This document shows positions 15,046-55,155 of a stretch of 64,000 bases of DNA, piece after piece. Position 1 is the first letter of the stretch, and every line of letters starts with the position of its first letter. The DNA is taken from positions 1-64,000 of the forward strand of contig DASRJE010000208.1 in the NCBI GenBank assembly GCA_035649635.1. The letters are read 5' to 3'. The notes beneath the pieces are model-generated. The model was given only the letters and a program-made list of their open reading frames with translations, did no database searches and had not been told where the DNA came from. Both the position numbers and the translations under genes were made by a program. The DNA comes from Vicinamibacterales bacterium (lineage in GTDB: Bacteria > Acidobacteriota > Vicinamibacteria > Vicinamibacterales > UBA2999).

Positions 15046-15046
15046 G

Positions 15047-32168: not shown

Positions 32169-33500
32169 ATGCCTACGCCACTCTTCTTGCTTGACCGGCC
32201 GTTGACCAACGGGGACCTCGAGACCTACGACGAACAACTCCGGCAACTCCAGGGGAATATCCTGAAAAGTCACGGTCGGAACGAGACGGCCAGCATCTTT
32301 CTCACCTTCCTGCCAGGACAGATCGACGGAGTCAGGGATTTCCTGCACACCATGGCACGCCGCGTGACATCCGCGCAGCAACAGGAGGCGCAGGCCAGGG
32401 CCAGGGAAAGGAACGAGCTCTTCACAGGACTCTGGCTGAGTGCCGAGGGCTATAAGTTCCTGGGCCACAGTCTCACGGGTTTCGATTTGACCTTTCGCCA
32501 GGGTATGCGCGGCGCCAAGGAGCGCCTGGACGACCCGCCGGTGGAAAACTGGGAGCCAAAGTTCAGAGAACAGATCCATGCGCTCGTGACGTTCGCGCAC
32601 AGCGATAGAACCGTCGTGTCGGCCAAGCTCGATGACCTTCGCGGCGAAGTCGGGAGCATCGCCTCGGTATCGTCGGAGCTCGGTCATGCCATGCGCGACG
32701 GCGACCGTGCCTTCGAACATTTCGGGTTTCTGGACGGCGTGAGCCAGCCGATCTTTTTCGCCAAAGATCTGCCGGACGCGACTTCGAGAGCGCAGTGGGA
32801 TCCGTCGGCGGGGCCGAGGCTGGTGCTCAGGCAAGACCCGCTCGGCACCCGCGAGGAGTGTGGCTCCTACTTCGTCTTCCGCAAGCTCGAACAGAACGCC
32901 AAGCGATTCAAGCTGCGACAGAAGGCCCTCGCACGGAAGCTGGGCGTCTCGACGGCCGTGGCAGGCGCCATGATCATGGGGCGCTTCGAGGACGGCACAC
33001 CCATTACGAAGCGCCAATCGGAGAACGGGAGAAGGGAAAACGATTTCAACTATGGCGCAGACGGACACGGCCACGTGTGTCCGTTCTTTTCCCACATTCG
33101 CAAAGCCAATCCTCGTGGGGCTACCGACAACGGGATCCCGGGGGCCGAAGGTGTCCATCGTATTGCTCGCAGAGGCATTACTTATGGCGACCCCACGCCC
33201 CGCAACGGAAGTAGTTCGCACTGGCCCGAAAACGGTGTCGGTGTGCTCTTCCAATGCTGCCAGGCCGTTCTGTCAAATCAGTTCGAAACGATTCAAGGCC
33301 GGTGGGCAAATGATCCCAGTTTCATCAGGGCCGGAGTCGGCCAGGATGCGGTGATTGGCCAGCGGGGGCAGACTCGTATCGCGTTTCCCGCGGGGCGCGG
33401 CAGCGCAGCCCGTGTGCCATTCGACTTTGGGGAGTTCATCCACATGCGCGGCGGCGAGTACTTCTTCGCCCCCGCCAAGTCGGTGTTGGTCAGGCTCTAG
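32169..33500 (+). CDS. Dyp-type (dye-decolorizing) heme peroxidase
   Basis: ORF 32169..33500, 443 aa. Shows the DyP family pattern LFTGLWLSAEGYKFLG, FGFLDGVSQP and HIRKANPRG (proximal His region). Confidence 0.8.
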   Translation: MPTPLFLLDRPLTNGDLETYDEQLRQLQGNILKSHGRNETASIFLTFLPGQIDGVRDFLHTMARRVTSAQQQEAQARARERNELFTGLWLSAEGYKFLGHSLTGFDLTFRQGMRGAKERLDDPPVENWEPKFREQIHALVTFAHSDRTVVSAKLDDLRGEVGSIASVSSELGHAMRDGDRAFEHFGFLDGVSQPIFFAKDLPDATSRAQWDPSAGPRLVLRQDPLGTREECGSYFVFRKLEQNAKRFKLRQKALARKLGVSTAVAGAMIMGRFEDGTPITKRQSENGRRENDFNYGADGHGHVCPFFSHIRKANPRGATDNGIPGAEGVHRIARRGITYGDPTPRNGSSSHWPENGVGVLFQCCQAVLSNQFETIQGRWANDPSFIRAGVGQDAVIGQRGQTRIAFPAGRGSAARVPFDFGEFIHMRGGEYFFAPAKSVLVRL

Positions 33501-33540: not shown

Positions 33541-34356
33541 TCAGCCGCGGCCCGGCGTGCCGTGCCAGCGCGTATGCGTGCGATGAAGCACTCGTGCTGA
33601 CACGGATGTATCTTCGGCGCGGTGCATGAGCGACAGGTTGTCCCACACGAGCACGTCGCCAGGCCGCCATGCGTGCGCGTAAATGAATTCCGGTTTCAGC
33701 GCATGCGCATAGAGACTGGCGAGGAGCTGGACGCCCTTCCTCTTTGGCAGTCCCACAATCGAATCGATGCTGAATTGATTCAGGTAGAGCGACCGCCGCC
33801 CGGTCACATGATGTTCGCGGACAAGTGGGTGGACTGTAGCCCCATCCCGCGGCGCTGTGAGCCCTGACGCTCCGAGCAAGGCGCCGAAACAATGACGGGC
33901 CGCAAGAGGTTCGAGAACGGCCTTTCTCTTGGGAGGCAGCGCCTCGTAGGCCCCCCGCATGTTCGCAAACATCGTGGCGCTGCAGGGTGACGGCACGACG
34001 ACCGCCTTCAGGACGATGACGGGCGACGGGTCTGGCTTGAATGACTGGTCGGTGTGCCAGAAGACAGTCGATCTGGTGACGCCAGGAGCTCCGAGGTCGT
34101 GCCGGACCACCTGAATCCGCCGATCGTCCCGGAGCCTGAACGGCGCATCCCTGGGAAGAACCCGCTCGTCCACCTCCCCAAAGATGCTCGTCAGCGCCAC
34201 TTGATCGTCATACGACAAAATCTGATCCCTGAAAACGAGGAGCAGGCGTTCGTGCAACCCACGCACAAGCTGGCGTCGGCCGGCCGGCGTGATCCGCTCG
34301 AGATCGAAGCCCACCACCTCAGCCCCGAAGGAGGCAAGGAGAGGACGAATCAGCAT
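33541..34356 (-). CDS. TauD/TfdA-family Fe(II)/2-oxoglutarate-dependent dioxygenase
   Basis: Segments WHTDQSF (HxD facial triad) and ...MHRAEDTSV... (distal His). Length is typical of the family. Confidence 0.75.
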   Translation of the reverse strand: MLIRPLLASFGAEVVGFDLERITPAGRRQLVRGLHERLLLVFRDQILSYDDQVALTSIFGEVDERVLPRDAPFRLRDDRRIQVVRHDLGAPGVTRSTVFWHTDQSFKPDPSPVIVLKAVVVPSPCSATMFANMRGAYEALPPKRKAVLEPLAARHCFGALLGASGLTAPRDGATVHPLVREHHVTGRRSLYLNQFSIDSIVGLPKRKGVQLLASLYAHALKPEFIYAHAWRPGDVLVWDNLSLMHRAEDTSVSARVLHRTHTRWHGTPGRG

Positions 34357-34408: not shown

Positions 34409-36829
34409 ATGATCGGCATCTCTGTCTCTCACTATCTCGTCACCGACAGGCTCGGTGGGGGCGGCATGGCCGTCGTCTACGAGGCGCAGGATGTGCGTCT
34501 GCCTCGACGAGTCGCTCTCAAGTTCCTGCGCGACAAGCTCGCGAACGACCCGCTGGCGCTTACCCGGTTCAAGCGCGAAGCGGCTGCGCTGTCGCTCCTC
34601 AATCACCCGAACATCTGCACGATTCACGAGGTCGATGCGTTCGAGGGGCAGCCGTTCATCGCGATGGAGAAACTCGAGGGGCGAACGCTTCGCGCGCGCC
34701 TCGCGGAAGGAAAAGTCGAGCCTGCGGAGCTGGTCGACATCGCCGCGCAGATAGCCCAGGCCCTGAAGGCGGCGCACGAGAAGGGCATCGTCCACCGTGA
34801 TATCAAGCCGGGGAACATCTTCATCACGTCGAACGGCGTCAAAGTCCTCGACTTCGGTCTCGCGAAACTGCTCGTCGGGACCGAGAACGAGACCGTCGAG
34901 GACCACACAGTGGACGGACGGCCCGTGGGGACTGTCAACTACATGTCCCCCGAGCGCATCCGGCAGGACAATCTCGATCCCCGCAGTGACCTCTTCTCGC
35001 TCGGCGTGGTGATCTTCGAAATGGCGGCCGGATTCACCCCCTTCGAGGGCGGATCGATCGCTCAAACGGTTGCGAACGTCTTCGACCAGGATCCGCCGGC
35101 GCTCTCCGACGTGGCACCGCGTCAGCCGGACGAGTTGCAATCCATTGTGCACAAGCTGCTGGCTCGAGATCCCGAGGACCGCTATCACACCGCGGGGGCC
35201 TTGTTGCGGGATCTGAAAGCACTGGCGATCCGGATAGATGTCCGGGCGGGAGCCACCAGTCAGACCACGACCAGTGTCCGCGGGAAGACAGACCCGAGGA
35301 GCGGGCGGATATCCGTCGTGGTGATGCCAACGAGAGTGTTGGCTGAGGAAGCCGACTCGTTTCTTGCGGATGCTATTCCGAATGCCATCTCCAAGCATCT
35401 GCTGAAGGTCCCGGGCATCGAGACCAAGCGCCCGCCCACGACCGGCGACCTCGAGCGCGTCGCCGGCGATCTCGATCAGGTGGCCACCGTGTACGGCGCG
35501 ACCGCGTACGTCGTGTCCCTGCTGAACGTCTCGAGTGGGCGATTCAAGCTGTCTGTCCAGTTGGTCGACACCGCGTCTCGCAAACTCAGATGGTGCGACG
35601 AGTACAAGGGTTCGCGTAAGGGATACACCGGTATCGTGAAGGCGGCGGCGGAAGGGATCCGGCGCGCGTTGCAACCGGACACGGACCCGCCGCCGGCGAC
35701 GACGTCGGTGGTGGTCAATCCCGAGGCCGAGCTGCTCCTGCAACAGGGCTTGTACCATTTGAACCTGTTCAGAAATCTCGCCCGGCCGACCGATTTCGAG
35801 CGCGCGGAGACGACGCTTCGCCGCGCCGCCGACCTCGAGCCGGAGCGAGCCGATGCTCCTGCCGCTCTTGCATTGCTGCATACGGCACGGCTCGTGACCG
35901 GCGCCTCTCCATCGGAGGTCGTTCCTGTGTGTGAGACCTGGGTGAAGCGGACGCTGGAAATCGACCGCCGGAACAGCAAAGCGTGGGCGATTCTCTGCGA
36001 GCTCGAGACCATGCGCTCGGAGCTTCGAAAACCGTTCGAGTACGGGCTCAAGGCCGCGGCGTTCGGCGGCCGCGATGCGTTCGCGCACGCGAGGCTCGCC
36101 GGATGTCTCATGTGGCATTCCTACGAGTTGTCGTTGCTCGCCGCCAGTGAGGGCGCGCGCTTCGATCCTCTCGTCCTCGATGCGCCAGTGTTTGCGGCGA
36201 TCAGCCTGAATCAGTTGAGTCGCAGGGACGAGGCACTATCGCTGATCGAAGTCGTGCTCAACATCGAGCCGGACATGCTCCTTGCGCAGTTCATCAAAGG
36301 CCTGATCCTTGCCGATGCCGGCCGCACGGATCCGGCACTGGAGATCATGGCACGGCTCGAACCTTTTGCCGCAAAAGGCCGGCTGCTGCCACAATGGCCG
36401 GCAATCTTCAAGGACGTCGCGGCGTATCACGACGCCGCCACGACCGGGGACACCGAGATGCTCGATCGGACGACACAGAGGCTGGCAGGTTTCGCGAGAG
36501 GTGAGAACCAGTTCCCGCGCTGGGAACTGACGACGTCGGGAATCACACGGCTGCTGGCCAAGCGTTCACCGGCATTGTCGCTCGAACTATTCGCGCACCG
36601 CGCGATGATGGGGATCATCGAGCCGTACGACCATCTCGTGACGCACCCGGATCTCGATCCGCTGCGTGGCGACACGCGCTTCCAACGCCTGCTCCGCACA
36701 TCGCGTCGAAATTTCGAAGAAACCCTGTCTGTCGTGCGAATGGCGCAGAGCCGCGCCGAGGCCCCCGACTACATCGCCCACGCGCTCGACGACATCACAA
36801 AACGCTTTCAGCTCTCCACCAGTTCCTGA
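34409..36829 (+). CDS. Ser/Thr protein kinase with C-terminal TolB-N-like and TPR-like regulatory region
   Basis: Hanks kinase motifs [27 protein letters not shown] and DFGLAK, followed by ...[23 protein letters not shown]... and ~450 aa of helical repeats. Confidence 0.85.
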
Positions 36830-36831
36830 CC

Positions 36832-38262
36832 GTGCCGGCTACGCTCGCGCTCATCGACGGCGTGCACATCGACACGTCCGAATCGGTGACGCGTATCTTG
36901 GGCCCGGGCGTCGACCTCGTGCTGGACCGGCCCTCCGCCCAAGATCTGAAAACACTTCGACGGCTCGTCTTGGGACGAAGCTCGCACAGCGCGCTCACGA
37001 CCCGCACCATCGCTCACGGCGGGCTCGCGGGGTTACGCCGGTTCTACGAGCTGCTTGCCGAGTTGATCACACGGGGCTGGCTGATCGAGCGTGTCGTTGA
37101 CGGCACGGCTGCGATCGTCAGCGCGATCCCGTTGACCGATGACTATTCATGGAACGACGGGTCGAACGGTGATCGGGAAGGCACACTCTCGCGCTTTGCG
37201 TTCATGCGACGCGTCGGTGCGCAGATGGTGCTCGAATCGCCAACCGCGCGTGCACAAATCGTCCTGCATGACTGGCGAGTACTCTTCCTGCTGTGGCAAC
37301 TCTCGCGTTCCCGCCCGCGTTCGCGCGCCGGCACGCCGGGAGCCGGATTGCCTCGATCTGTGATCCGCGCCGTTCGCGGCATGCTCTGGAGCGCCGGGTT
37401 CCTCGTGACCGGAAATGACGGACCCGATGCAGGAGAGCCCCCAAAACTGTTCTTCTGGGAGTTTCATGATCTGCTGTTTCATAGTCGATCGCGCCTTGGC
37501 CGGCATCACAATCCGTATGGGGCAACCTATCCCTTCGAAGGTCGCGTGCCGATGCCGCCGGTGTTCAGACCTCGCGACCGCCGCACGCGCATCCGCTTGT
37601 TCAGGCCCGACGTCACGCGACTTCGTCGCACCGATTGGACGCTCACGCGCGCGCTCGAGGCGAGGCGATCGCAAAGAGACCACAGCGATTCACCGATCAC
37701 ACGACGGGAACTTGGCGAGTTTCTCTTCCGATCAGCGGCCGTCAGATCCGCCCGACCACACGATCGTTATGCCGCCAGTGTGCGCGTTTACCCGAGCGGC
37801 GGCTCGGTGTATTCGCTGGAATTGTATATAGCGGTCCGGCTGTGTGCGGGCCTGGCACCTGGGCTGTATCACTACGTTCCCGAGCGACATGCGCTCTCTC
37901 GAGTGAGCTCGTTGACGGTTCCCGTCCGGTCACTCCTCGACAGCGCCGGTCGCGCGGTCCGCGCCGCGCAACCGCAGTTGCTCATTCTCATCGCTGCTCG
38001 ATTCCCGCGTGCCGCGTGGAAGTACTCGTCGATTTCTTACTCCCTCGTCCTGAAAGAGGTCGGAGCGCTGATGCAGACGATGTATCTCGTGGCCACGGCG
38101 ATGGGACTTGGCGCGTGCGCGCTTGGCGGGGGCGATTCCGATCTATTCGCGAAGGCGGCCGGAATGGACTACTACGCCGAAGGCTCAGTCGGCGAGTTCA
38201 TTCTCGGCCGTCTTCCACGATTCGCCGGAGCGCGCAGGCTTCAGCCTGGGCGGAAATTATGA
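36832..38262 (+). CDS. SagB-type (McbC/ThcOx-like) FMN-dependent dehydrogenase with ~250-aa N-terminal extension
   Basis: GTG start 3 nt after the kinase stop. The C-terminal 200 aa match the SagB-type dehydrogenase pattern: RRSQR..., YPSGGSVYSLELYIAV, GLYHYVP, RAAWKYSSISY, KEVGALMQTMYLVATAMGLGACALGG, EGSVGEFILG. Confidence 0.8.
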   Translation: MPATLALIDGVHIDTSESVTRILGPGVDLVLDRPSAQDLKTLRRLVLGRSSHSALTTRTIAHGGLAGLRRFYELLAELITRGWLIERVVDGTAAIVSAIPLTDDYSWNDGSNGDREGTLSRFAFMRRVGAQMVLESPTARAQIVLHDWRVLFLLWQLSRSRPRSRAGTPGAGLPRSVIRAVRGMLWSAGFLVTGNDGPDAGEPPKLFFWEFHDLLFHSRSRLGRHHNPYGATYPFEGRVPMPPVFRPRDRRTRIRLFRPDVTRLRRTDWTLTRALEARRSQRDHSDSPITRRELGEFLFRSAAVRSARPHDRYAASVRVYPSGGSVYSLELYIAVRLCAGLAPGLYHYVPERHALSRVSSLTVPVRSLLDSAGRAVRAAQPQLLILIAARFPRAAWKYSSISYSLVLKEVGALMQTMYLVATAMGLGACALGGGDSDLFAKAAGMDYYAEGSVGEFILGRLPRFAGARRLQPGRKL

Positions 38263-38302
38263 CCGGGGCTGAAGCCCCGCGCTCCTCTGTACCGAAACCA
38301 CT

Positions 38303-38641
38303 TCAGAAACAGCAGTAGTGTTCTCTCGGTCCACGCATGATGCCCCAGCGCTCTCGCAGGTGGTCCGCCATTTCCTCGTAGGTGAATACGAACTCCGGAT
38401 CGAATTCCCTGGCGATGTCGAGGATCCTGGAATTGTGTGCGGCAATCCTCGCCTGCAAGTCCGCGTTGGTCTCGACTGCGGTGAAGAACCGGGAGACCGG
38501 TGAGTCGTCTGGAACGAACGCCACCAGTCCGACCGGCGCAGTCCTGCGCGCAGCCTTTCTCTTCGCAGTCTTCTTCGCGGCTTTCTTCACTGACCTCTTC
38601 GTGGATTTCTTGGCAGCCTTCTTCGCGGACTTTTTCGCCAT
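38303..38641 (-). CDS. Candidate RiPP precursor: Lys-rich N-terminal tail, Nif11-like leader-type domain, C-terminal ...HYCCF
   Basis: 112 aa. Residues 2-33 are AKKSAKKAAKKSTKRSVKKAAKKTAKRKAARR (AAG-rich, visible in the DNA as cttcttcgc runs). Residues ~48-92 (VSRFFTAVETNADLQARIAAHNSRILDIAREFDPEFVFTYEEMADHL) fit the Nif11 pattern. It ends RGPREHYCCF. Lies 37 bp downstream of the YcaO gene on the same strand. Confidence 0.55.
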   Translation of the reverse strand: MAKKSAKKAAKKSTKRSVKKAAKKTAKRKAARRTAPVGLVAFVPDDSPVSRFFTAVETNADLQARIAAHNSRILDIAREFDPEFVFTYEEMADHLRERWGIMRGPREHYCCF

Positions 38642-38677
38642 GACGCCTCCTCGCGCGAGGGTGATTATCGCCGAGTG

Positions 38678-40846
38678 TCAAATGACGATGTGAAAATTGT
38701 TCATCTGACCTTCAGTCCGGGACGTCCGGCGCCACCCCAGGGCGACCGGTACGTCGTACAGCCGGCCGGGTGCGAATCGAGGCCAGAAATGACGAAGGCC
38801 CGGCACAATCACTCGAACGACCGGTAGACCAACATCCTTTCGCGTCTGATCGAGGACGAGCGTCTCCATGCCACACCGGTGAGCGGCGGTCACACATGCC
38901 ATCACCGCGTCCCGGATGTCCGTGTAGATGGCGTCCTGAAAGTTCCGCCGGTCGCGAACGGCGGTCTGCCTGGTGCGCCTCAGGAACCGACCGAGGCCCG
39001 AACGTCGGTGACTGAAACTTGGTCCCGCGACGCCCAGGTGCACTCCGCTGCGCCATTGATTCAGCTCGGTGATGGCACGGGCGATCGCCGTGCTGGCGTC
39101 GAGATGCGCGCCGAAGCCGAGGAGCAGTTCGCCGGTTCCGCGTTGGAGTCCCTCGGAAACCGCCGCGAAAACGGGTATGCCGAGATCGGTCGTCAGGTCG
39201 TGGACGGTGAGCGAGCGGCCGTTCCTGGCATAATCGCGCACCATTCGCCGAAAGAACGGATTCGAAAAGGTGGCGAGATCGACCGTGGGTCTCGCAAGCT
39301 CGTTGTACCACCAGATCGCGACCGCGTCCCGTTCGACCAGCTCCAGGAAGCCCTGCAGAATGGCCTCTTCCAGGCTGTTGCCGGCCGCGCAGCCGTTCGA
39401 GTTGGCGCGACTGCATCGCTCCGCTTCAGGTGCGCGATAGCCAAAATAGCAGTAGGCCGTCGGCACGTAACGGATTGTGTCGTGGCTGAGCGACCACACA
39501 GGCGTCCAGTCGATTTCCTGCTGGCGGTCGAGAAGTCGGGGAACCCAGCATTGCGGCAATGCACGAGCATTCCAGGCGTCGCGCTCCTCGAACTGCAACT
39601 CGCTGAATGCGGCGCACGCGTTGGGATGAATGGCTTGTCCGCCCAGGGCGTCGTACGACGTCCGTACCCGTGTTTCGATGCCGCGAAAGATTCCTGAATA
39701 CCGTTCGAGCGCTTCGCACAGGGCGCTGGCCCTTGCCTGGGCTCGCCCGATGCCTTTCCCCGAGCTGAGACGACGGCCAGTTGGGAATGGCTCGGTCTCC
39801 GACGCCAGGAACACGTGCTCGGCGGAATACAGCTCCAACCCGCGTGATGCCGTCGTCCTCCGGGTAATTCGCGTGATGATGCCCGTCCACCTGCTGATGT
39901 GATGCCTGTAGCGACTGAACGTCTTGTGGGGCGGCACCGCGCGCCAACCACCGTCAGAGAACGCGGCTCTCGGCCGTCGCGTAAGTACGATTCGCGGATC
40001 CGGTAATGACGTTCCGCCTTCCGAACTGGCTACTGGCGGCGCGCACCGTGGACAGCCTGGCTGCGGGACCACGAGGTGAGCGCTGGATCGCCACAACCGA
40101 GGATCGAGCGCAATCATCGTCCCGATCCGAGTCAACGGTTGCAGTAAGGTGTTGGACGGGGCGCGAAGCTGATTGTGCCGGATGCGAAGTGTCTTCAAAT
40201 CGACGGGATCGCTCGCGAGTCCGCCCGACGATTCCAGCCATGTGTGTGCGGGTCGGTTGGCCCGGATTCGTGCGAGCACACAATCCCAGCATGGTGTCGA
40301 CGGGGGATGCACGAGCGGACCCACCCAGATGACTGTGCCCATGGGCTTGACAGGCAGCCAGGCACGATTGGCGCGTGCGGCTTTTTTCGCGAAATCGGAG
40401 ACGTCGCGACGAAGGTACTCATCGGTCAGGACGACCTCCACGTCGCCGTTGCGACGTGGCGCGAGCCCGAGCTTGTCCAGGACATCGATTGTGGCGGCGT
40501 TCGCCGCGTTACGAGTTCCCTCACGCGTGCGCCGACGGCCATCGACGAGGTGACCGGATCGATGGAGGATCGCGAGCGATGCGAGTACCTCGGCGACGCT
40601 TGCTGAACCTCGCAGTTCCTGAACGATGTCCATCACCGACCGCGTGCCATCGAGCAGGGGCGCCAGGCGAGGGAAGATCGGCCCCTCGAGGGGCCACGAC
40701 TCCACGTCTGACAGCAGCACCGCCCGTGAAGAATCGATGCTGGCCACGGTGAGGTGCGGCCTCAGTTGCGGAAACGACGACTGGCCGCGCTTCACCGCAT
40801 CGCGTCCAGGGTGGTCTTCAACGGCTCGCGGCTTTCGAGTGCCCAC
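38678..40846 (-). CDS. Fused TOMM cyclodehydratase: E1-like/ocin-ThiF-like leader-binding domain plus YcaO domain (C-D fusion)
   Basis: N-terminal ~300 aa carry the PCWDC motif and docking-domain features. The YcaO core reads GKGIGRAQARASALCEALERYSG...SNGCAAGNSLEEAILQGFLELVERDA. 722 aa. Confidence 0.85.
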   Translation of the reverse strand: MGTRKPRAVEDHPGRDAVKRGQSSFPQLRPHLTVASIDSSRAVLLSDVESWPLEGPIFPRLAPLLDGTRSVMDIVQELRGSASVAEVLASLAILHRSGHLVDGRRRTREGTRNAANAATIDVLDKLGLAPRRNGDVEVVLTDEYLRRDVSDFAKKAARANRAWLPVKPMGTVIWVGPLVHPPSTPCWDCVLARIRANRPAHTWLESSGGLASDPVDLKTLRIRHNQLRAPSNTLLQPLTRIGTMIALDPRLWRSSAHLVVPQPGCPRCAPPVASSEGGTSLPDPRIVLTRRPRAAFSDGGWRAVPPHKTFSRYRHHISRWTGIITRITRRTTASRGLELYSAEHVFLASETEPFPTGRRLSSGKGIGRAQARASALCEALERYSGIFRGIETRVRTSYDALGGQAIHPNACAAFSELQFEERDAWNARALPQCWVPRLLDRQQEIDWTPVWSLSHDTIRYVPTAYCYFGYRAPEAERCSRANSNGCAAGNSLEEAILQGFLELVERDAVAIWWYNELARPTVDLATFSNPFFRRMVRDYARNGRSLTVHDLTTDLGIPVFAAVSEGLQRGTGELLLGFGAHLDASTAIARAITELNQWRSGVHLGVAGPSFSHRRSGLGRFLRRTRQTAVRDRRNFQDAIYTDIRDAVMACVTAAHRCGMETLVLDQTRKDVGLPVVRVIVPGLRHFWPRFAPGRLYDVPVALGWRRTSRTEGQMNNFHIVI

Positions 40847-40910: not shown

Positions 40911-41112
40911 CTCAGTGTCAGGCAGTGAATCGTGAACGACGCGATTGTCCGCTAAACGGTGTCAGGCAGTGAATCGTGAAGGCGCGATTGTCCGCTAAAC
41001 GGTGTCAGGCAGTGAATCGTGAACGTGAACCGTGAACAGGCAGGGCAACGGCTCTCCTCGACGGCTCTCTTCGGTGTCAGGCAGTGAATCGTGAAAGGTG
41101 AATCGTGAACGT
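40911..41112 (+). repeat. Tandem array (4 full plus partial copies) of a ~23-bp element GTGTCAGGCAGTGAATCGTGAAC with 20-21-bp near-identical spacers, 65-265 bp upstream of the YcaO gene start
   Basis: Copies at 40915-40937, 40959-40980, 41002-41024 and 41074-41095, plus GTGAAC partial repeats. Spacers gacgcgattgtccgctaaacg and ggcgcgattgtccgctaaacg. Confidence 0.8.
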
Positions 41113-41610: not shown

Positions 41611-41635
41611 CGTTCACGATTCACTGCCTGACACC
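41611..41635 (-). repeat. Dispersed copy of the same element in inverted orientation (CGTTCACGATTCACTGCCTGACACC) downstream of the PQQ dehydrogenase
   Basis: 25/25 identity to the reverse complement of the array unit. Confidence 0.7.
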
Positions 41636-41710: not shown

Positions 41711-43831
41711 CTATTCGACGATGATCTGAGCATACGCCCAGGGATGCTCTTTGCAGGTGTAGACGTAGGTGCCCGGTCGATCGAATTTCACGCCGGCGAC
41801 ACCGGCGGGATCGATCGGACCCGTGGACCATGAACCGTCGTCGGCCTCGGCCGAGTGGATCATGGTGCCGTTGTTGCGCCATGTGACGGTCGTGCCCACC
41901 GCAATCTTTGCGCGGTACGGATTGAACTGGTACTCGTCGGTCATGAAACGCGCGCCGGTGAAGGCGTTGTCCCGTTGCAGGGCCGCGGTCTCAATCTGCG
42001 TCGTTTCGGTAACCATGCCGGTGAAGAGCTCCGGCTCGCGCGGCGCCGGCGGCCCCGGTCGTGGTGCCATCGTGCCCCCGAGCTTGAATGCCCAGACATT
42101 CGTGCTGGTCACGAGCGAGACGAACTGCTCGCCGTCGAGTTCGAACGACGCCGCTGGTCCTCCAGCGGGAGCGCCGGTCTGGAACTGCCACACGATCTCG
42201 CCAGTCCTGGCATCGTGCGCGCTGAAGTGTCCGTCCGGCGCAGCGTGAAACAGCAGCCCCCCGGCCGTGGTCAGTACACCGCTCGGGCGGCCGGCACCTG
42301 ACGGGAACTCGCGGCGCCAGACGATCTTGTGCGTCTCGCCATCGATTGCCGCCATCACGAACGTCTCGAACCGATCGATCCCGGGCACGCGATTGCTGAA
42401 GGCGGTGCTGAAGAAGTACCCATCTTCGGCTCGGCGGAGCCAGCGCAGCGAACGTTCCCCGACGGCGTAGAAGTACCCGGTCTGCTGGCTGTAGGACATC
42501 GGCGCGACGCGCATCCCGTAATACGGCATCAGCACGTTCGGCTTGTCGATCGACACCGCCTGGTAGTAGCAGCCAACCTCGAAGCCTTTCGGCATGGTCT
42601 GCGTCTTCCGCCACCAATCGCAGTCGGGAAGGACGCCTTCGGCACCGGCAGGGAAGGGCTGCGTTGCGGCGGTTTTCTGAAAGCGGTCCTGCGGGACCTT
42701 GCGCTCCTCGATCTTCATCAAGGGTTTGCCAGTGACTCGATCGAACGTGAACACGTAGCCATCGGGCCGAATGGCACCGATCGCCTTCACCGTCCTGCCG
42801 CCCACCTGTGCGTCGTACAACACGGGTGAGATAGACATGTCGGCTTCCCAGATATCGTGGCGGATCGTCTGGTAGTGCCACTTCAGTTTGCCCGTCTTCA
42901 TGTCGAGGGCAACGATCGAGCAGATGAAGAGGTTGGTGCCCTCGCGATGCTCACCGGAGAGCTGAGGTACGCCGTTGCCGGTGACGTAGTAGAAGAGGCC
43001 GGACTCTTCGTCCGCGACGCCCGTCAGCCAGAGGGCGCCACCGCCGAACTTCCACTGGGCGGTCTTGGGCCATGTCTCGCTGCCTGGCTCTCCGGGAGCG
43101 GGCACCGCGAACCAGCGCCAGACCTCGCGTCCCGTCTTGCCATCGAGTCCGACGACCTGTCCGCGCCAGCCGTTGTCGGCGCTCAATCCGACCGAGACGA
43201 TACCGCCCGCGTAGACGGGCGCACCGGCGATTCCCTGCCCTTTGTCCCGTGCATCCTCGCCAACGTACTTGTTCCACACGAGCTCGCCGGTGTCGTCGCG
43301 GAGCGCGATGACCCGCGCGTCGGACGTCCCGACAAAGACAAGACCATCGCCGATTGCAACACCTTCGCGGTCGGGTGCGCCCATCCGTGGCGCACCGGCG
43401 GCGGAGCCGCCGCGCGCACCACCGCCGCCGGCCGTGAAGCGCCAGACGGTCTTGCCGGTCCTCGCGTCGATCTTCACGACGTTGGGCGGGGCGGTGAAAT
43501 ACATCATGCCGTTCTTCACGACCGTCATCGATCGCGAATTCGCGGGCGGAGTCAGCCGGTCCGACATCCACACGGCACCGAGCCGCGACACAGTCTGCGT
43601 GTTGATCTGATTCAGGGTGGAGTAGCGATTTCCCAGATCGCCCATGACGGTCGACCATTCGCGGCCGCTGGATGGCGCCGGACCGGATTGGACGGAGACC
43701 GTCACGGGAATCGTAAGAGCCGCGGCGACGGCGGCCGTGAGAATCCACGCCGCGCGTCCGCGCGCACGCCATCGCCCAACTGTTCGTTCGCAGCGACTAG
43801 TGAGTACGTGGCTCAGCCTACGAAATGTCAC
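41711..43831 (-). CDS. PQQ-dependent dehydrogenase (eight-bladed beta-propeller) with C-terminal cupredoxin-like domain
   Basis: Signal-like N-terminus. PQQ propeller repeats throughout. The last ~100 aa (VGTTVTWRNNGTMIHSAEA...GTYVYTCKEHPWAYAQIIVE) show a cupredoxin-like His...Cys-x2-His arrangement. Exact start uncertain. Confidence 0.8.
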   Translation of the reverse strand: MTFRRLSHVLTSRCERTVGRWRARGRAAWILTAAVAAALTIPVTVSVQSGPAPSSGREWSTVMGDLGNRYSTLNQINTQTVSRLGAVWMSDRLTPPANSRSMTVVKNGMMYFTAPPNVVKIDARTGKTVWRFTAGGGGARGGSAAGAPRMGAPDREGVAIGDGLVFVGTSDARVIALRDDTGELVWNKYVGEDARDKGQGIAGAPVYAGGIVSVGLSADNGWRGQVVGLDGKTGREVWRWFAVPAPGEPGSETWPKTAQWKFGGGALWLTGVADEESGLFYYVTGNGVPQLSGEHREGTNLFICSIVALDMKTGKLKWHYQTIRHDIWEADMSISPVLYDAQVGGRTVKAIGAIRPDGYVFTFDRVTGKPLMKIEERKVPQDRFQKTAATQPFPAGAEGVLPDCDWWRKTQTMPKGFEVGCYYQAVSIDKPNVLMPYYGMRVAPMSYSQQTGYFYAVGERSLRWLRRAEDGYFFSTAFSNRVPGIDRFETFVMAAIDGETHKIVWRREFPSGAGRPSGVLTTAGGLLFHAAPDGHFSAHDARTGEIVWQFQTGAPAGGPAASFELDGEQFVSLVTSTNVWAFKLGGTMAPRPGPPAPREPELFTGMVTETTQIETAALQRDNAFTGARFMTDEYQFNPYRAKIAVGTTVTWRNNGTMIHSAEADDGSWSTGPIDPAGVAGVKFDRPGTYVYTCKEHPWAYAQIIVE

Positions 43832-43858: not shown

Positions 43859-43926
43859 CGTTCACGATTCACTGCCTGACACCAGGAGCGCACCAGGAGC
43901 GCATTCACGATTCACTGCCTGACACC
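43859..43926 (-). repeat. Two more inverted-orientation copies of the element, separated by a duplicated CAGGAGCGCA motif, in the PQQ dehydrogenase promoter region
   Basis: 43859-43883 and 43904-43926 read directly. They sit between the stop of the 43936..46080 gene and the start of the PQQ dehydrogenase gene. Confidence 0.7.
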
Positions 43927-43935
43927 AGGACGCGA

Positions 43936-46080
43936 CTACTTCGCGAGCGGGTCGGGACGCATCTGGAACTTCATCACCTTGCTCGTCGTCCCTTTGCCCG
44001 TCTCCATGTGGAACGGCGTTCTGGTCGATATCGTCGTCCAGATGCCGCGACCCTTCCATCCGGCGTTGGGATCATCGATACGGCCGTCCATCCACTTCGT
44101 GTAGAACCCAAGCGGATACGGCACGCGCATGGTGACGAACTTGCCGTCTTTCAACGCCAGCAGTGCTTCAGTCGCGTTCCCGGTGTTGATCGGCACGTTG
44201 CGCCCCAGTCCCAGCGTGTCGAACTGATCGACCCACGTGTAGTAGCTCCCTTCCGTGCTTCCGGAATCGGTGACGTTCTTGAACTGCGGCGCCGGCTCCG
44301 TGTAGAAAGTCCAGCCTTCGGGACAATGCAGACCGCTGGCTTTCGGACCGTTCAGCGCGCCTTTGCACTTGCGGCGATCGAAGCTCGCGAGATGGCCGCT
44401 TGCCATGGCCGCCCAGTACACGCCGTTGCGATCGACGTCACCGCCGCGCGGTGAGAATCCCTTGTCGACGGGAGGTTGATAGATCTCCACGAGCGCCGTG
44501 TCTGGGGGATTCGACCCGGGCGCGAGTCTGATGAGAGCTCCCGGATACCCGAGCTGCGTGCCCCACACCGAACCGTCAGGCGCCGGCGCCACGGCGTAGA
44601 GCGCACCGCCTATGCGCTGATCCTTGCTCGGGTCGAGCGGCTGATCCGGTTCGGTATACGCGTCGCGTTTTCCGTTTCCGTTGGCGTCCCTGATGAGAGC
44701 CGTCCAGCCCTGCGACTTCATCTCGTCCTGCGTCTCGTCGAACATCTTCGTGTTGAGCCATCCGATCACCTGTCCGCCGCCGCTGGTCCACAACGTGTGG
44801 TTCGCGTCCTCGGCGAACATCAGGTGATGGGTTCCGAAGCAGGTGCTGATGTGAGTCAGCTTCTTCGTCGCCGGGTCGTACACGGCTAGGTGGCGGCCCG
44901 CGTTTTCCACGGGGAAGAGTTTCGCAGAGGGGTGGCTCGAGCCGGTCTTGCACTCAGGCGGATTCGCTGCGGGCCGTACCGTCGAGGTCAGCCACACCCG
45001 TCCTTTGTGATCGAGCATCGGGTTGTGGACGTTGTTCTTGCTGGTCCAGATCACCTCGTCCGCCCAGTACGGCGACGGCTCCGGCATCGCGGGATTCGTC
45101 GGGGGAGTCTTGGGGTCTCTTACCGTCAGCGGCACCTGGCTCGCCGTGTTGGTAACCGGATTCAACACCGGCACGTAGTCGGCACTGAGTTCAAGCGCTC
45201 CGTACACCGGCCCATTCGGATTGACGCGCGGATTCCTCCGGTCGGTCGAGACGACGTCGTGCAGGTATGCCTTGGGATCGGCCCAGTCCCACTGCGTGAT
45301 GACGACGTTTCGCTCGATCCCCTGCGGACGTTGCGGCGCCGGTGGAACCTCGCCGGCACGGACCCGATCGGTCCAGTCCGCGAACATCTTCAAGACGCGC
45401 GCGCGGCCGAAATTATTCAGTTGGCCAGTCATCTGCCCGCCAGCCTGCCCGGACTTCACGCGACGATCCCAGGCCGCGACGGTGTTGGGGAATGAACCGA
45501 GCGCCGCCGGGATTTCCCTCGTGCCCTTGGTGCCGAGCGCATGACACGCAGTGCAGCCTCCTGATTTCACGCTGCGGATCCAATCGCCCTGGCTCTTCAT
45601 GTTCGGCGAGATCCCGTTGCCGCTGTCGCCAGTGCCCGGGAACTCGCTCTTGGCCGGCATCTCCATCAACGCCAGCCAGTGTGCGGCCGGATAGTAATGT
45701 GCCGCCTCCGCCGGAGAACTCGCTTTCACGGCACGAAGGGCAAGGCTCTTGCCCGGAGTTGCCTGAACCTTCGGGGAGTCGACCAGCCCGTATCCGCGCA
45801 CCCAGACGCGGTAACTGGCCTTGGGTAGATCGGGCACCAGATAACGTCCGCGATCGTCGGTGACGACAATCCGCGCGAACGGTGTGGGCAGGTCGGTCGT
45901 TTCGGCAACGACCCAGACACCGGCCTCGGGCCCGGACGGCCCGGTTACCGTTCCTGCCAGGTCGTCGTTGTCGATCGCGATCGCGTCGTTCGATGTTTGC
46001 GCGGCACGGGTACCACTCACGATTCCCGCCCAGACCATGAGTCCGATAATGATTCCGAGGGTCAGTGGTTTTTTCGCCAT
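43936..46080 (-). CDS. Secreted protein with N-terminal carboxypeptidase-regulatory-like domain and a CxxCH heme-binding motif
   Basis: Start MAKKPLTLGIIIGLMVWAGIVSG (signal). CarbopepD_reg-like segment VVAETTDLPTPFARIVVTDDRGRYLVPDLPKASYRVWVRGYG. Single heme motif GGCTACHALG. Confidence 0.65.
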   Translation of the reverse strand: MAKKPLTLGIIIGLMVWAGIVSGTRAAQTSNDAIAIDNDDLAGTVTGPSGPEAGVWVVAETTDLPTPFARIVVTDDRGRYLVPDLPKASYRVWVRGYGLVDSPKVQATPGKSLALRAVKASSPAEAAHYYPAAHWLALMEMPAKSEFPGTGDSGNGISPNMKSQGDWIRSVKSGGCTACHALGTKGTREIPAALGSFPNTVAAWDRRVKSGQAGGQMTGQLNNFGRARVLKMFADWTDRVRAGEVPPAPQRPQGIERNVVITQWDWADPKAYLHDVVSTDRRNPRVNPNGPVYGALELSADYVPVLNPVTNTASQVPLTVRDPKTPPTNPAMPEPSPYWADEVIWTSKNNVHNPMLDHKGRVWLTSTVRPAANPPECKTGSSHPSAKLFPVENAGRHLAVYDPATKKLTHISTCFGTHHLMFAEDANHTLWTSGGGQVIGWLNTKMFDETQDEMKSQGWTALIRDANGNGKRDAYTEPDQPLDPSKDQRIGGALYAVAPAPDGSVWGTQLGYPGALIRLAPGSNPPDTALVEIYQPPVDKGFSPRGGDVDRNGVYWAAMASGHLASFDRRKCKGALNGPKASGLHCPEGWTFYTEPAPQFKNVTDSGSTEGSYYTWVDQFDTLGLGRNVPINTGNATEALLALKDGKFVTMRVPYPLGFYTKWMDGRIDDPNAGWKGRGIWTTISTRTPFHMETGKGTTSKVMKFQMRPDPLAK

Positions 46081-46336
46081 GATGCTCTCGCCTTTCGTGC
46101 GGCTGTCCACTAATCCGCGAGCCAGATGGAGTTGGAGGTTGCGGCGTTAATGCGCTCAGCGCCGCCTGAGGATATCGCAGGTGGCTACGGCAGCCAACTC
46201 ATCGTGTGGGGGCTCACCAGCCTGTTGACTGCGTAATTCTCACGGTCTCAGACTACGGTTCGCCTTCAGCAGGGGCGGGTGTAGCCGCAAGAGCAAGGAA
46301 GAAGAAGCGGAGGCGAAGGACGACGATCGACCGTGA

Positions 46337-49927: not shown

Positions 49928-50451
49928 TCGACCAGCCGCTCCAGCTCTTCGTCGGTCAACCTCGCGCCGCGTTCCCGCATGTCGACGGTGACGACGCGCC
50001 AGCGATCCGGGCTGAAGCGCGCGTCGTTAACCCGATCGAGAGTATGGCAGGCCGTGCTGCACGACCGATTCAATACTGCTTGCGCCTCCGCATCCGAGAA
50101 GAACGTGGTGATTTCGGGCGCGACGTACGTCCTTGGAAATGGTTTTGTCCCGGGCCCGAATTTCGTGACGAGCCAGCCGACGAGGAGCTCGCGGTCGGCG
50201 TCAGCGATCCCGACCTTCACATCCTTGTGTTTGGTCTCGATGAGCGATTTCCATCCCGCGTTGTCCAGCGCAAAGAACGCGTAATCGTCGATGCCGTGGC
50301 ACGACACACAGTTCTTGAAGATCACCTGCCTCACGGCACCCTGAGGCGGTTGCACTTGCGGCCTCGTTGGGCGGCCGGCGAGTTGTGCCGAGATAGGCAT
50401 TGAACACACGGTGAAGTACACGCAGATCGCGAAGAGAACGACACCCTTCAT
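49888..50451 (-). CDS. Diheme c-type cytochrome
   Basis: ORF 49888..50451 (-), 187 aa. Signal peptide. Two heme motifs, CVSCHG and CSTACH. Confidence 0.7.
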   Translation of the reverse strand: MKGVVLFAICVYFTVCSMPISAQLAGRPTRPQVQPPQGAVRQVIFKNCVSCHGIDDYAFFALDNAGWKSLIETKHKDVKVGIADADRELLVGWLVTKFGPGTKPFPRTYVAPEITTFFSDAEAQAVLNRSCSTACHTLDRVNDARFSPDRWRVVTVDMRERGARLTDEELERLVEWLGRVKGTNPNQ

Positions 50452-51800
50452 GCGATCTCCAGCGGCTCGATGCCCGGCAACGGACCGGTGCTCGTCCCGA
50501 GCTTGTCCTGCGCCACGCCGTACAGATGGAGCAGGCTCAGGAGCATGTTCGACGTGCGCTGCTTGTTATCCGGGAATACCAGATGTCGATTGCCCTTGAA
50601 GGTGCCATCGAGGCCGCCGGCGAGAATCACCGGCACCTTCTCGTGCGCATGGCGATGGGAGTTGCCCATGTTGCTGCCCTTGTAAATCAGCACATGGTCG
50701 AGCAAGTTGCCGTCGCCGTCCGGGATGTTGCGCAGCTTGTCGCAGAAGTACGCGACGTTCTGGACGTGGTAGCGATTGACCTTTGCGTAGTTGGCCACGT
50801 TCTCCGGCTTGTCGCCGTGATGCGAGGAGCCGTGCCATCCGCCGTTGAAGCCTGATTCGGGGAAGCTCGTCCCCGTGAGATCGCGTCCGAGCATGAACGT
50901 CGCCGAGCGCGTGATATCTCCCTCGAACGCCAGCGCCATCAGGTCGTACATCAGCCTGAAGTGGACGTGCTTGCTCTCCGGCAGGCCGAACGGCACATCA
51001 CCGTTGGGCTCCTTCACTGCGTTGGTCATCGCAATCCGGATTCGCCGCTCGAGCTCGCGCACGTTGTCCACATAGGTGTCGAGCCTGGTTTGATCGCCGG
51101 CGCCAAGATCCTTTTTGAAGTGCGTGAGCTCGCGGGTCACGGAGTCGAGGATGCTCGCGTTCTGCCGGCGGCCGGCGAGCCGTTCTTCCGGGCTCGTGCC
51201 GTCGCCAAACAGCCGTTCGAACACGACCCGAGGGTTGACCTGCGTGGGAAGCGGCTGCGTCGGCGAGGACCACGAGATCGAGTTGGTGTACGCGCAGCTA
51301 TAGCCCCAATTGCAGTTGCCGAAGTTGCCGGTGTCCTCGACGCCCAACTGCATGGACGACAGGATCGTGTCCTGTCCGTACTGATTCGCGATGAGTTGAT
51401 CGATCGTCACGCCGAGGTACGGGCTGACGGCGTTGCGTCGCGGGCGGGCGCCAGACAACAGCACAGCGCCGCGAGCGTGATCGCCGCCGGGTTCCTCGTC
51501 GGTGGCCATGGCTTCTGGCATGTCGAGTCCGGTGATGAGCACGACACGATCGCGGAACGGCTCCAGCGGTTTCGTGATGAAGGAGAAGTCGAAGTCGCGA
51601 CCTTCCTGCACCGGGCTCCAATAACCTGGCGCCGCGCCGTGCGGATGCCAGATGCCAACGAAGCGCTTCACGGGCGCCGCAGCGGTCAGGCGTAGAGGTG
51701 TCATCGCTGGAAGCATCGACTCCAGCAGCGGAAGCGCGAGCGTGACGCCAGCACCACGAAGAAACGTTCGACGTGGAAGGTGCCGCTTGGTGACAAACAT
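50448..51800 (-). CDS. Tat-exported DUF1552-family protein (partner of DUF1592-family cytochrome-like proteins)
   Basis: ORF 50448..51800 (-), 450 aa. Tat motif PRRTFLRGAGVTLALPLL. His-rich conserved stretch GGWHGSSHHGDKPENVANYAKVNRYHV. Confidence 0.65.
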   Translation of the reverse strand: MFVTKRHLPRRTFLRGAGVTLALPLLESMLPAMTPLRLTAAAPVKRFVGIWHPHGAAPGYWSPVQEGRDFDFSFITKPLEPFRDRVVLITGLDMPEAMATDEEPGGDHARGAVLLSGARPRRNAVSPYLGVTIDQLIANQYGQDTILSSMQLGVEDTGNFGNCNWGYSCAYTNSISWSSPTQPLPTQVNPRVVFERLFGDGTSPEERLAGRRQNASILDSVTRELTHFKKDLGAGDQTRLDTYVDNVRELERRIRIAMTNAVKEPNGDVPFGLPESKHVHFRLMYDLMALAFEGDITRSATFMLGRDLTGTSFPESGFNGGWHGSSHHGDKPENVANYAKVNRYHVQNVAYFCDKLRNIPDGDGNLLDHVLIYKGSNMGNSHRHAHEKVPVILAGGLDGTFKGNRHLVFPDNKQRTSNMLLSLLHLYGVAQDKLGTSTGPLPGIEPLEIA

Positions 51801-51878
51801 CGATAATCTCCTGGCCCGCCGGGTCCGAAAAACAGGACCCGGCCTACGTTGCCTCCGTTAGGACCCGGCCTACGCTGT

Positions 51879-54377: not shown

Positions 54378-54393
54378 CTCTACCGTGACAATC

Positions 54394-55155
54394 TTAAAAC
54401 CAGGTCCTGATTCCGATCGCCAGCCGCGCCCCTGCTGGCGTCTCGCCGGCCGCCTCCGCGAGGTCGGCTGTGCGAAAGAACTTGCGGCTCCAGACCAGCC
54501 CGACATATGGCGCCATCTCGCGCCGAATCTCGTAGCGAAGTCTCAATCCCAGGTCGAGCGTCGCGAGTCCGGCACCGTATCGATGTTCCGGATCGGCCTT
54601 GCCGTAGATTTCTGTTTCCAGTAGCGGCTGCAGCACCAGGCGATTGGTGAGCAGCAGGTCATACTCGGTCTCGACGCGGAAGTGCGTGCGTCCGGCTGCA
54701 CCGATGTACGCCGTCGCCTGGACGTCGAACCAGTACGGCGCGATGCCCTGAATCCCTGCAGCCGCCCATGTCTGAGCCGGACCGGGCCGCACGTCCTGAC
54801 GAACGCCGGCGACGATGTCCCACCACCGCGCGATCGAGCGTCCGAAAAGCACGTGCGTCTGTGTGGCGGCAAAGCTCGCATCCCTGACATCGCCTTCAGT
54901 TCTGATCCAGAAGCGATTTCGATCGCCGCCCACCCAGCCCTTCGTGTCCCACGCGCCGCTGTCCCCGCCGTCGAGGCTCTGCCACTCGAGTTGGTCGAAC
55001 AGGAGGAAGTAGTTCACCGCCGTGTCGTGAGCAGCATGTCCCTCGACGTCCGGGAAGGCGGCCGCTCGGTCGGCATCAGTAACCGGCGGCGGCTCTTGCC
55101 CGCGCGCGAGCGCCGGGCAAAAGACAACGAGGAGAAGCGCTATGAGGGGGCGCAT
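54394..55155 (-). CDS. copB: Copper resistance protein B (CopB/PcoB outer-membrane protein)
   Basis: Start MRPLIALLLVVFCPALARGQ (signal). CopB-family segments DQLEWQSLDGGDSGAWDTKGWVGGDRNRFWIRTEG and a C-terminal beta-barrel ending ...AIGIRTWF. Confidence 0.75.
   Translation of the reverse strand: MRPLIALLLVVFCPALARGQEPPPVTDADRAAAFPDVEGHAAHDTAVNYFLLFDQLEWQSLDGGDSGAWDTKGWVGGDRNRFWIRTEGDVRDASFAATQTHVLFGRSIARWWDIVAGVRQDVRPGPAQTWAAAGIQGIAPYWFDVQATAYIGAAGRTHFRVETEYDLLLTNRLVLQPLLETEIYGKADPEHRYGAGLATLDLGLRLRYEIRREMAPYVGLVWSRKFFRTADLAEAAGETPAGARLAIGIRTWF

Follow-up and report, generated by a model that had tools for sequence, protein, structure and literature searches.

Here, we describe a 112-residue open reading frame (ORF) in a 64,000-nucleotide stretch of DNA from a Vicinamibacterales bacterium (assembly GCA_035649635.1, contig DASRJE010000208.1, positions 1 to 64,000; hereafter the window). 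We conclude that it probably encodes the ribosomal precursor of the thiazole/oxazole machinery encoded beside it, and that it comes from a rare, divergent subfamily with a Nif11-like leader. The locus carries the features of a cluster for linear azole-containing peptides or thiazole/oxazole-modified microcins (LAP/TOMM), namely a YcaO protein with an E1-like domain, a SagB-type dehydrogenase, and an adjacent precursor with a C-terminal Cys pair. The full translation of the minus strand ORF, from 38641 to 38303, is MAKKSAKKAAKKSTKRSVKKAAKKTAKRKAARRTAPVGLVAFVPDDSPVSRFFTAVETNADLQARIAAHNSRILDIAREFDPEFVFTYEEMADHLRERWGIMRGPREHYCCF. It begins with MAKKSAKKAAKKSTKRSVKKAAKKTAKRKAARRT and ends in GPREHYCCF, and heterocyclisation is predicted at its only cysteines, C110 and C111.

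The precursor ORF is a real gene under purifying selection. Compared to two homologues, dN/dS is 0.10-0.27 in the domain and core and ~0.22-0.28 in the N-terminal tail, with synonymous sites near saturation. An AGGAGG likewise precedes the precursor homologues in loci L001 and L004, and the N-terminal start is MAKK in eleven homologues and MKKG or MKRK in two more. The spacer between the YcaO stop codon and the ribosome-binding site (RBS) of the precursor keeps a GGCGATAAT(C/T)AC motif (window 38652-38677, L001 311-349, L004 2818-2857) that is common to the window and to the homologues at 59% and 52% identity; for the precursor gene it could serve as the -10 element of an internal promoter or as an RNA signal. 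A GC hairpin with a 6-bp stem and no T tract (CGGGGC-TGAA-GCCCCG, window 38264-38279) sits where the SagB and precursor genes converge; it may end transcripts from both directions or act as a stabiliser.

Relatives, gene order and the Nif11 relationship

The family is small. Searches of up to 5.8 billion protein clusters yielded ~25 relatives in total: a word-indexed search of all 5.8 billion clusters found two homologues (98% and 56% identity), an exhaustive hidden Markov model (HMM) search, for which the tail was removed from the protein, gave 15 matches only among 1.84 billion cluster representatives, and a profile search added five further relatives. Identities of the precursor homologues are 98%, 59% and 52%, then 26-38%. 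A scan of 185,579 species genomes with a small-protein alignment found no precursor relative, and a four-member alignment gave pattern matches in metagenome contigs but no relative confirmed by tblastn. When the same species genomes were scanned with an alignment of the YcaO clade, 80 loci were recovered, all at or below ~40% identity, and only two of them, L017 and L012, contain a related precursor, which is tail-less. The closest relatives of the window YcaO form a metagenome-only clade at 51-71% identity, one member of which (P0014) is annotated as coming from a Gemmatimonadales metagenome-assembled genome (MAG).

The position of the gene is conserved. A preliminary description of this DNA had expected homologues to lie beside YcaO and SagB genes, and this was borne out: every homologue with an identifiable upstream gene is directly 3' of a YcaO orthologue, and SagB adjoins where the contig reaches it. 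These loci are L001, L002, L004, L003/L085-87, L088-90, P0011 and P0009, plus the more distant L017 and L012. In all but the last two the order is YcaO, precursor, convergent SagB and kinase, with TauD and DyP nearby; the SagB, kinase-tetratricopeptide repeat (TPR), TauD and DyP-like genes are visible in the longer contigs only. The P0128 and P0138 loci are laid out alike, though with upstream genes that are truncated and lack annotation. Orthologue identities by tblastn in the related loci are 53-71% for YcaO, 53-77% for SagB, 47% for the kinase (36% in L017), 61% for TauD and 49-51% for DyP. Such strict gene order contradicts the alternative raised in the preliminary description, that of a DNA-binding protein unrelated to YcaO.

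Two groups of relatives extend this picture. A sister clade ending in FCCT (L085 1278-17819 and L088 911-13910; also L003, L086, L087 and L089) has two tandem precursors, two TonB-dependent receptors, and a Planctomycete-type extracytoplasmic function (ECF) sigma factor gene that overlaps the kinase gene, a layout that recalls metallophore uptake and signalling operons. L017 and L012 (Acidobacteria MAG) hold a distant tail-less relative, ...RKRWEISKPKDDPNTCTVTVG, directly 3' of YcaO. L017 (5989-17057) also encodes SagB/ThcOx, a dual kinase-TPR protein, a B12-binding radical SAM enzyme and an S53 (kumamolisin-like) peptidase; no other relative has an evident candidate for the leader peptidase.

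All family members share a motif, FFDxV..LQ...I...A...G..F.Y..M..HL..RW, and a second one at the very C-terminus, x[IV]xxxPxxx[YF]C[CT][FT]. The distance from the Arg-Trp to the C-terminal end is 12-17 residues, and 13 in most members. That homologues would end in a Cys pair had also been anticipated, and Cys-Cys or Cys-Thr is indeed kept at the penultimate positions (CC, CT or CCC), with Thr as the only substitute for the second Cys in close members. In P0002 (L001 350-706), L004 (2858-3190) and P0123, the three closest diverged homologues, a CxxC directly follows the conserved Arg-Trp (RWCIxCGPxEHYCCF; CxxC-x6-CC), for four Cys in all; the window protein has Gly and Arg in place of these two cysteines.

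Structure prediction with a 16-sequence family alignment (AF2) divides the window protein into three parts. Residues 1-39 are disordered (pLDDT <50), four helices at 48-58, 60-68, 70-80 and 88-99 are predicted with pLDDT ~80-86, and residues 100-112 are coil. At the level of the family, the helical part is related to Nif11: 13 of the 18 aligned members match PF07862 (best E-value 8.3e-17) and TIGR03798 (best 5.3e-15), Nif11 is the top family for seven tailed relatives (14-22 bits, profile positions 4-47), and P0131 scores 25.5 bits on PF07862, above the cut-off. Searched against the PDB, the family profile matched 9zn4, the nuclear magnetic resonance structure of the MppE Nif11 leader, with E=0.0013, compared to E=1.5 for the other two matches. 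A profile of the L020 precursor, meant as a canonical Nif11 profile, recruited four paralogues only. From these family-level matches we accept the precursor as remotely homologous to the Nif11 leader, and place it in a divergent subfamily of Nif11-like precursors that, judging from enzyme domains, is served by standard cyanobactin-type or nitrile hydratase leader peptide (NHLP)-type enzymes. The earlier proposal of a new YcaO-linked precursor class therefore stands as to a YcaO-linked, Nif11-like precursor, and "new class" overstates what is a divergent Nif11-like subfamily.

The lysine-rich tail

The preliminary description had noted a Lys/Ala/Arg run over the first ~33 residues and a local dip in GC content. 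Both are present. Tail residues 2-34 consist of K13 A9 R4 S3 T3 V1, and GC content does fall, if modestly, from 63.4% in the window to 54.5% in the tail (the 3.7th percentile of 99-nt windows). Among six-frame ORFs of at least 60 amino acids in the 64-kb window, only this tail reaches at least 8 Lys per 30 residues. Window ORFs of at least 250 amino acids contain 1.9% Lys and 11.3% Arg, and K/(K+R) is ~0.76 in the tail compared to ~0.15 in these long ORFs. Because the long ORFs are Arg-dominated, the tail is enriched for Lys specifically and not merely for positive charge. The tail DNA has a 12-nt period, with 6.6 copies identified by a tandem repeat finder, corresponding to a four-residue AKKx unit, and tail length probably changes via slippage of this 12-nt unit.

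Tails vary among lineages. Net charge before the FF motif spans -2 to +16 across the family, and tail charge 0 to +16, with the window protein as the extreme, and clearly cationic tails occur in eight of the 15 matches from the exhaustive HMM search. Members P0131, P0135, P0138 and P0139 and those of L017 and L012 have no tail and retain the C-terminal motif; the L017 and L012 precursors are directly 3' of confirmed YcaO orthologues, and the P0138 locus has a like layout with unannotated flanks. No K-rich precursor-like ORF was found in the 80 loci with ~40%-identical YcaO relatives. Given the variable charge, the retention of motif and gene order by tail-less members, and this absence from the ~40% YcaO loci, the tail is a subfamily-specific, lineage-variable accessory extension. 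Since tail-less relatives keep the gene order, the core chemistry would not need it.

Pfam and NCBIfam searches with the tail gave no match to an H1-, Hc1- or HU-type family, and the only match, at a chance-level E=0.32, was to part of an adenylate kinase model that is likewise Lys/Ala-rich. The modifying enzymes are themselves basic and Arg-rich: YcaO has a pI of 10.2, net charge +28 and 10 Lys, and SagB has a pI of 10.9, net charge +26 and 6 Lys. The kinase is the sole acidic partner among the cluster proteins. Across loci, YcaO pI climbs with precursor tail charge (6.5 in L017, 7.3 in L085, 9.7 in L004 and 10.2 in the window), a trend that would fit contact between kinase and tail, or a polyanion as a common partner, be it nucleic acid, polyphosphate or acidic membrane. 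Our best guess is that the tail most likely binds polyanions non-specifically (nucleic acid, polyphosphate or acidic lipid) or binds the acidic kinase, and so localises, stabilises or regulates the precursor. The roles raised in the preliminary description, nucleoid or membrane targeting or self-immunity, are hypothetical. No description or precedent of Lys-rich leaders of RiPPs, peptides made on the ribosome and modified post-translationally, was found in the literature searched, the coverage of which was incomplete.

Proposed maturation and competing explanations

We propose the following course of maturation. The precursor gene lies 36 nt after YcaO and has its own strong RBS, and the two genes are likely co-transcribed. 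The four-helix Nif11-like domain (residues 48-99) would act as the leader and dock on the winged helix-turn-helix (wHTH)/E1-like part of the cyclodehydratase, by analogy with the protein-protein engagement model for NHLP and Nif11 leaders (PMC12455567, PMC12537861). The 13-residue unstructured segment after the Arg-Trp would serve as a fixed-length tether that brings Tyr-Cys-Cys-Phe to the YcaO active site. Following established YcaO/SagB chemistry, C111 and C110 would be converted to thiazolines by ATP-dependent cyclodehydration, and the ThcOx-like flavin mononucleotide (FMN) dehydrogenase would oxidise these to a contiguous 2,4'-bithiazole, with a mass change of -40 Da. The TauD dioxygenase and DyP-like peroxidase, both predicted to be cytoplasmic, probably carry out oxidative tailoring. 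The kinase-TPR protein is most likely regulatory, with the ECF sigma factor as its partner in the sister clade. A lanthipeptide-type role for the kinase, phosphorylation followed by elimination, was considered and rejected, as lyase and cyclase domains are both missing and, in the sister loci, the kinase has an ECF sigma factor as its partner. By analogy, an invariant short core without a cleavage site recalls cofactor-like or metallophore-like RiPPs, as do, in the sister clade, its TonB-dependent receptors and ECF sigma factor; the window locus lacks both.

Several observations weigh against this interpretation. The preliminary description held that the protein aligns well to Nif11, which is true of the family but not of the window protein alone: on PF07862 it has E=0.013 and 16.3 bits, compared to a cut-off of 23.8, over residues 49-79 only, and on TIGR03798 it has no match at E<=1. 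As the preliminary description stated, there is no GG or GA anywhere in the 112 residues, and the family alignment has no conserved GG column before the core. The definition of Nif11-derived peptides (N11P) includes a Gly-Gly leader-cleavage motif that ends the conserved region, a hypervariable core with many Cys, Gly and Ser residues, and export by a C39-peptidase ABC transporter (PMC2887384). Because GG/GA, a hypervariable core, a C39 transporter and a protease are all missing, the precursor departs from this definition and a released peptide is not assured. Pfam searches found no peptidase, C39-peptidase ABC transporter (TIGR03794/6/7) or HlyD in large ORFs of window positions 12-62 kb, and no C39-peptidase ABC transporter/HlyD export system in the related loci. 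The idea that the tail is an electrostatic dock onto the modifying enzymes was ruled out, as YcaO and SagB are both strongly basic. Finally, in the incompletely covered literature that we searched, neither the motif nor the gene set nor a characterised family member was found.

The lack of a visible release route raises the question of whether the substrate is processed at all. Unprocessed, the whole ~12-kDa protein would act in the cell with a C-terminal bis-azole, held on nucleic acid or polyphosphate by the Lys tail, and the bithiazole would serve as a DNA-intercalating, metal-binding or redox group. A conserved gene set without GG site, protease or exporter is consistent with this, as are the invariant C-terminal motif at a fixed distance from a folded domain, which is seen in protein-like and cofactor-like systems, the cytoplasmic DyP and TauD, a tail whose composition and 4-residue period are like those of H1-type nucleic-acid-binding tails, and the unusual basicity of YcaO and SagB that tracks tail charge across loci. 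We nevertheless consider it unlikely: tail-less relatives share the C-terminus and gene order, the TonB-dependent receptors of the sister clade suggest an extracellular, re-imported product, the S53 peptidase beside the L017 relative suggests leader removal, and the tail has no homology to any DNA-binding family. In its most specific form, which we regard as a long shot, the precursor would be a polyanion-tethered, protein-sized carrier of a C-terminal bithiazole, with the Lys tail and the basic YcaO and SagB placing bis-azole synthesis or action on nucleic acid or polyphosphate. Such a product would be a ribosomal, DNA-directed bithiazole protein, an analogue of the bithiazole-plus-cation DNA-binding module of bleomycin, possibly switched by the kinase acting on Ser/Thr of the tail. 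The literature searched, with the same incomplete coverage, contained no ribosomal C-terminal bithiazole and no YcaO-linked TonB/metallophore system.

It is also conceivable, and in our estimation very improbable, that the ORF encodes an accessory or regulatory partner (a Nif11-like scaffold or a nucleic-acid-binding operon regulator), with the true substrate encoded elsewhere. The sub-threshold Nif11 match of the window protein would allow this, a basic tail could bind DNA, and TOMM precursors are sometimes distant from their enzymes (PMC2887384). Yet the conserved Cys-Cys or Cys-Thr sits at the tip of an unstructured segment, as in a core, the sister loci have two tandem paralogues, which is common for precursors, family members match the RiPP-precursor model TIGR03798, and the family HMM identified no other substrate candidate ORF in the window or related loci. 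The four Cys of P0002, L004 and P0123 (CxxC-x6-CC), together with a sister clade set amid TonB-dependent receptors and an ECF sigma factor, could instead indicate that the C-terminal Cys are metal ligands rather than heterocycles, in a small metallochaperone or redox protein. CxxC is missing from the window protein and most members, however, Thr in place of the second Cys in some members suits an azole and not thiolate ligation, and the tight link to a full cyclodehydratase and dehydrogenase pair would be unexplained, so that we give this reading very little credence. That the ORF is spurious, or its start misassigned and the tail untranslated, is suggested by the low complexity of the tail only and is scarcely credible given the AGGAGG 4 nt from the ATG, the MAKK/MKKG/MKRK starts in homologues, a reading frame kept through indels, and dN/dS below 0.3 in tail and domain alike.

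If the ORF is, as we favour, the precursor of the adjacent azole machinery, it represents a branch of azole RiPPs that is very rare and uncharacterised. It would be unusual for N11P in having no Gly-Gly site, exporter or protease, and in carrying an invariant C-terminal tetrapeptide whose spacing from a folded leader is fixed. Its set of partners would also be new: the kinase-TPR protein, TauD and DyP, joined in the sister clade by TonB-dependent receptors and an ECF sigma factor. This layout is commoner in cofactor-like or metallophore-like RiPPs than in antibiotics, and the family would offer a concrete target for genome mining. The Lys-rich extension would provide a clean test case for leaders that carry localisation or regulatory modules.

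Cluster surroundings and comparison with known systems

The enzymes beside the precursor gene (Table 1) are readily classified. The YcaO fusion protein matches PF02624 (4.4e-97), the wHTH model PF21084, TIGR03604 (268.2 bits; cut-off 219.25) and TIGR03882 (96.1 bits; cut-off 36.9); it may actually start downstream of the GTG at 40846. SagB matches PF22767 (ThcOx, 2e-25), Nitroreductase (PF00881, 7e-18) and TIGR03605 (163 bits; cut-off 78.4). The kinase stop codon is 2 nt before the SagB start, and therefore the two genes share an operon. The DyP-like protein falls below the TIGR01413 cut-off (86 compared to 100.5 bits). Among the scanned large window ORFs the sole transporters are MacB/FtsX-type permeases ~18-26 kb away, and a promoter/terminator scan around the operon gave results no better than shuffled sequence.

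Table 1. Coordinates in the window of the candidate precursor gene, its parts and the neighbouring cluster genes
Feature	Position	Strand	Basis
Candidate precursor gene, 112 aa + stop (ATG at 38641, stop 38303-38305)	38303..38641	-	Translation, homologues, dN/dS
Shine-Dalgarno AGGAGG, 4 nt 5' of the precursor ATG	38646..38651	-	Read from sequence
Lys/Ala/Arg-rich N-terminal tail, residues 2-34	38540..38638	-	Composition, 12-nt repeat (AKKx), predicted disorder
Nif11-like helical domain (predicted leader), residues 48-99, ending in conserved HLxxRW	38345..38500	-	AF2 helices, family-level Nif11/TIGR03798 matches, PDB 9zn4
Short C-terminal putative core, residues 100-112, GIMRGPREHYCCF	38306..38344	-	Family motif; coil in AF2 model
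Fused wHTH/E1-like + YcaO cyclodehydratase, upstream of precursor	38678..40846	-	PF02624, PF21084, TIGR03604, TIGR03882
SagB/ThcOx-type FMN azoline dehydrogenase, convergent with precursor	36832..38262	+	PF22767, Nitroreductase, TIGR03605
Ser/Thr protein kinase with C-terminal TPR region	34409..36829	+	Pkinase 7e-48, weak TPR matches, HRD and DFG motifs
TauD/TfdA-family Fe(II)/2-oxoglutarate dioxygenase	33541..34356	-	PF02668 4.5e-50, HxD motif, no signal peptide
DyP-type peroxidase-like protein	32169..33500	+	DyP_N 2e-8, TIGR01413 86 bits, no signal peptide

A 22-nt repeat, TTCACGATTCACTGCCTGACAC, has seven exact copies in the window, all intergenic, compared to none in shuffled sequences: four at 40915-41095 (-) and one each at 41613-41634 (+), 43861-43882 (+) and 43904-43925 (+). 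The four minus-strand copies form a ~43-nt array just 5' of the YcaO gene, with one inverted copy 500-670 nt away. The repeat is absent from all 90 related loci. A role as a regulator-binding array is disfavoured, since further copies lie in two other intergenic regions and no related locus has any; it is probably a genome-specific REP-like element. Beyond the array are genes for a pyrroloquinoline quinone (PQQ)-dependent dehydrogenase with a C-terminal cupredoxin-like segment (YTCKEHPW; 41711-43831, -) and a 724-residue protein with a CarboxypepD_reg domain and a CxxCH haem-binding motif (43936-46110, -), neither of which related loci keep beside the cluster. The window also has duplicated MacB/FtsX-type permeases and a Planctomycete-type DUF1552/DUF1592 gene pair (12331-15192, -; 17913-20360, +; 50448-54506, -), which, taken with the Gemmatimonadales annotation of P0014, would suggest a host among uncultured soil bacteria resembling Gemmatimonadota or Acidobacteriota.

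The candidate precursor resembles several known systems in part. With the N11P family (TIGR03798/PF07862; Haft, Basu and Mitchell 2010, PMC2887384) it shares a ~50-residue helical leader with the modified residues C-terminal to it, and the locus shares a fused cyclodehydratase (TIGR03882/TIGR03604) with SagB next door; a large Ser/Thr kinase is found in related TOMM clusters too. Unlike N11P, the window protein is below both model cut-offs and lacks the Gly-Gly site, and its locus lacks the C39-peptidase ABC transporter and HlyD; its predicted core is short (13 residues) and conserved instead of hypervariable and Cys/Gly/Ser-rich, it bears a Lys-rich N-terminal extension of up to ~35 residues, and its hosts, uncultured bacteria of soil, are neither cyanobacteria nor nitrogen fixers. 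Srp/proteusin-type precursors (SrpE with the SrpI brominase and YcaO; PMC10858898, PMC12537861) similarly combine a structured, protein-like leader with a YcaO azoline former and are modified at their extreme C-terminal end. In the Srp system, however, the leader is of the NHLP type rather than Nif11-like and a cationic tail is absent, whereas the locus described here has no halogenase and has TauD, DyP and a kinase.

The enzymes most resemble the cyanobactin/NHLP-type pair, with the wHTH, E1-like and YcaO parts of PatD/TruD/LynD-like fused YcaO proteins and the ThcOx-type N-terminal domains plus FMN nitroreductase of the ThcOx oxidase. In contrast to cyanobactin loci, the window has no PatA/PatG proteases, macrocyclisation or recognition sequences, the enzymes are Arg-rich and basic, and the nearest YcaO in the 185,579 species genomes is ~40% identical. 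A bis-azole is the DNA- or gyrase-interacting unit of microcin B17 and bleomycin, and the bithiazole of bleomycin bears a cationic tail. The likeness to our system is one of predicted chemistry alone, as adjacent Cys-Cys or Cys-Thr would yield a 4,2-linked bis-azole; bleomycin is non-ribosomal, and microcin B17 differs in its leader, in its McbBCD enzymes and in having far more azoles. The tail resembles the Lys/Ala-rich, histone-H1-like tails of bacterial proteins, which include Chlamydia Hc1, Pseudomonas AlgP and PhaF and the C-terminus of mycobacterial HupB, in its Lys/Ala composition with Ser/Thr/Pro, its tetrapeptide periodicity and its predicted disorder. It has no detected homology to them, and is fused to a RiPP leader instead of a nucleoid-associated or phasin domain.

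Mycofactocin MftA and PQQ PqqA likewise have a conserved, not hypervariable, modified motif and no leader-cleavage motif, and the methanobactin operon shares with the CCT sister clade, but not with the window locus, an ECF sigma factor and a TonB-dependent transporter or receptors. The enzymology of these systems is unrelated, with radical SAM or MNIO enzymes in place of YcaO and SagB. The domains of the cluster enzymes mark them as unexceptional fused cyclodehydratases and ThcOx-like oxidases of the cyanobactin/NHLP/Nif11 group. What appears novel lies with the precursor: the Lys-rich extension, the lack of Gly-Gly, the fixed-length tether to [YF]C[CT][FT], and the accompanying set of kinase, TauD and DyP.

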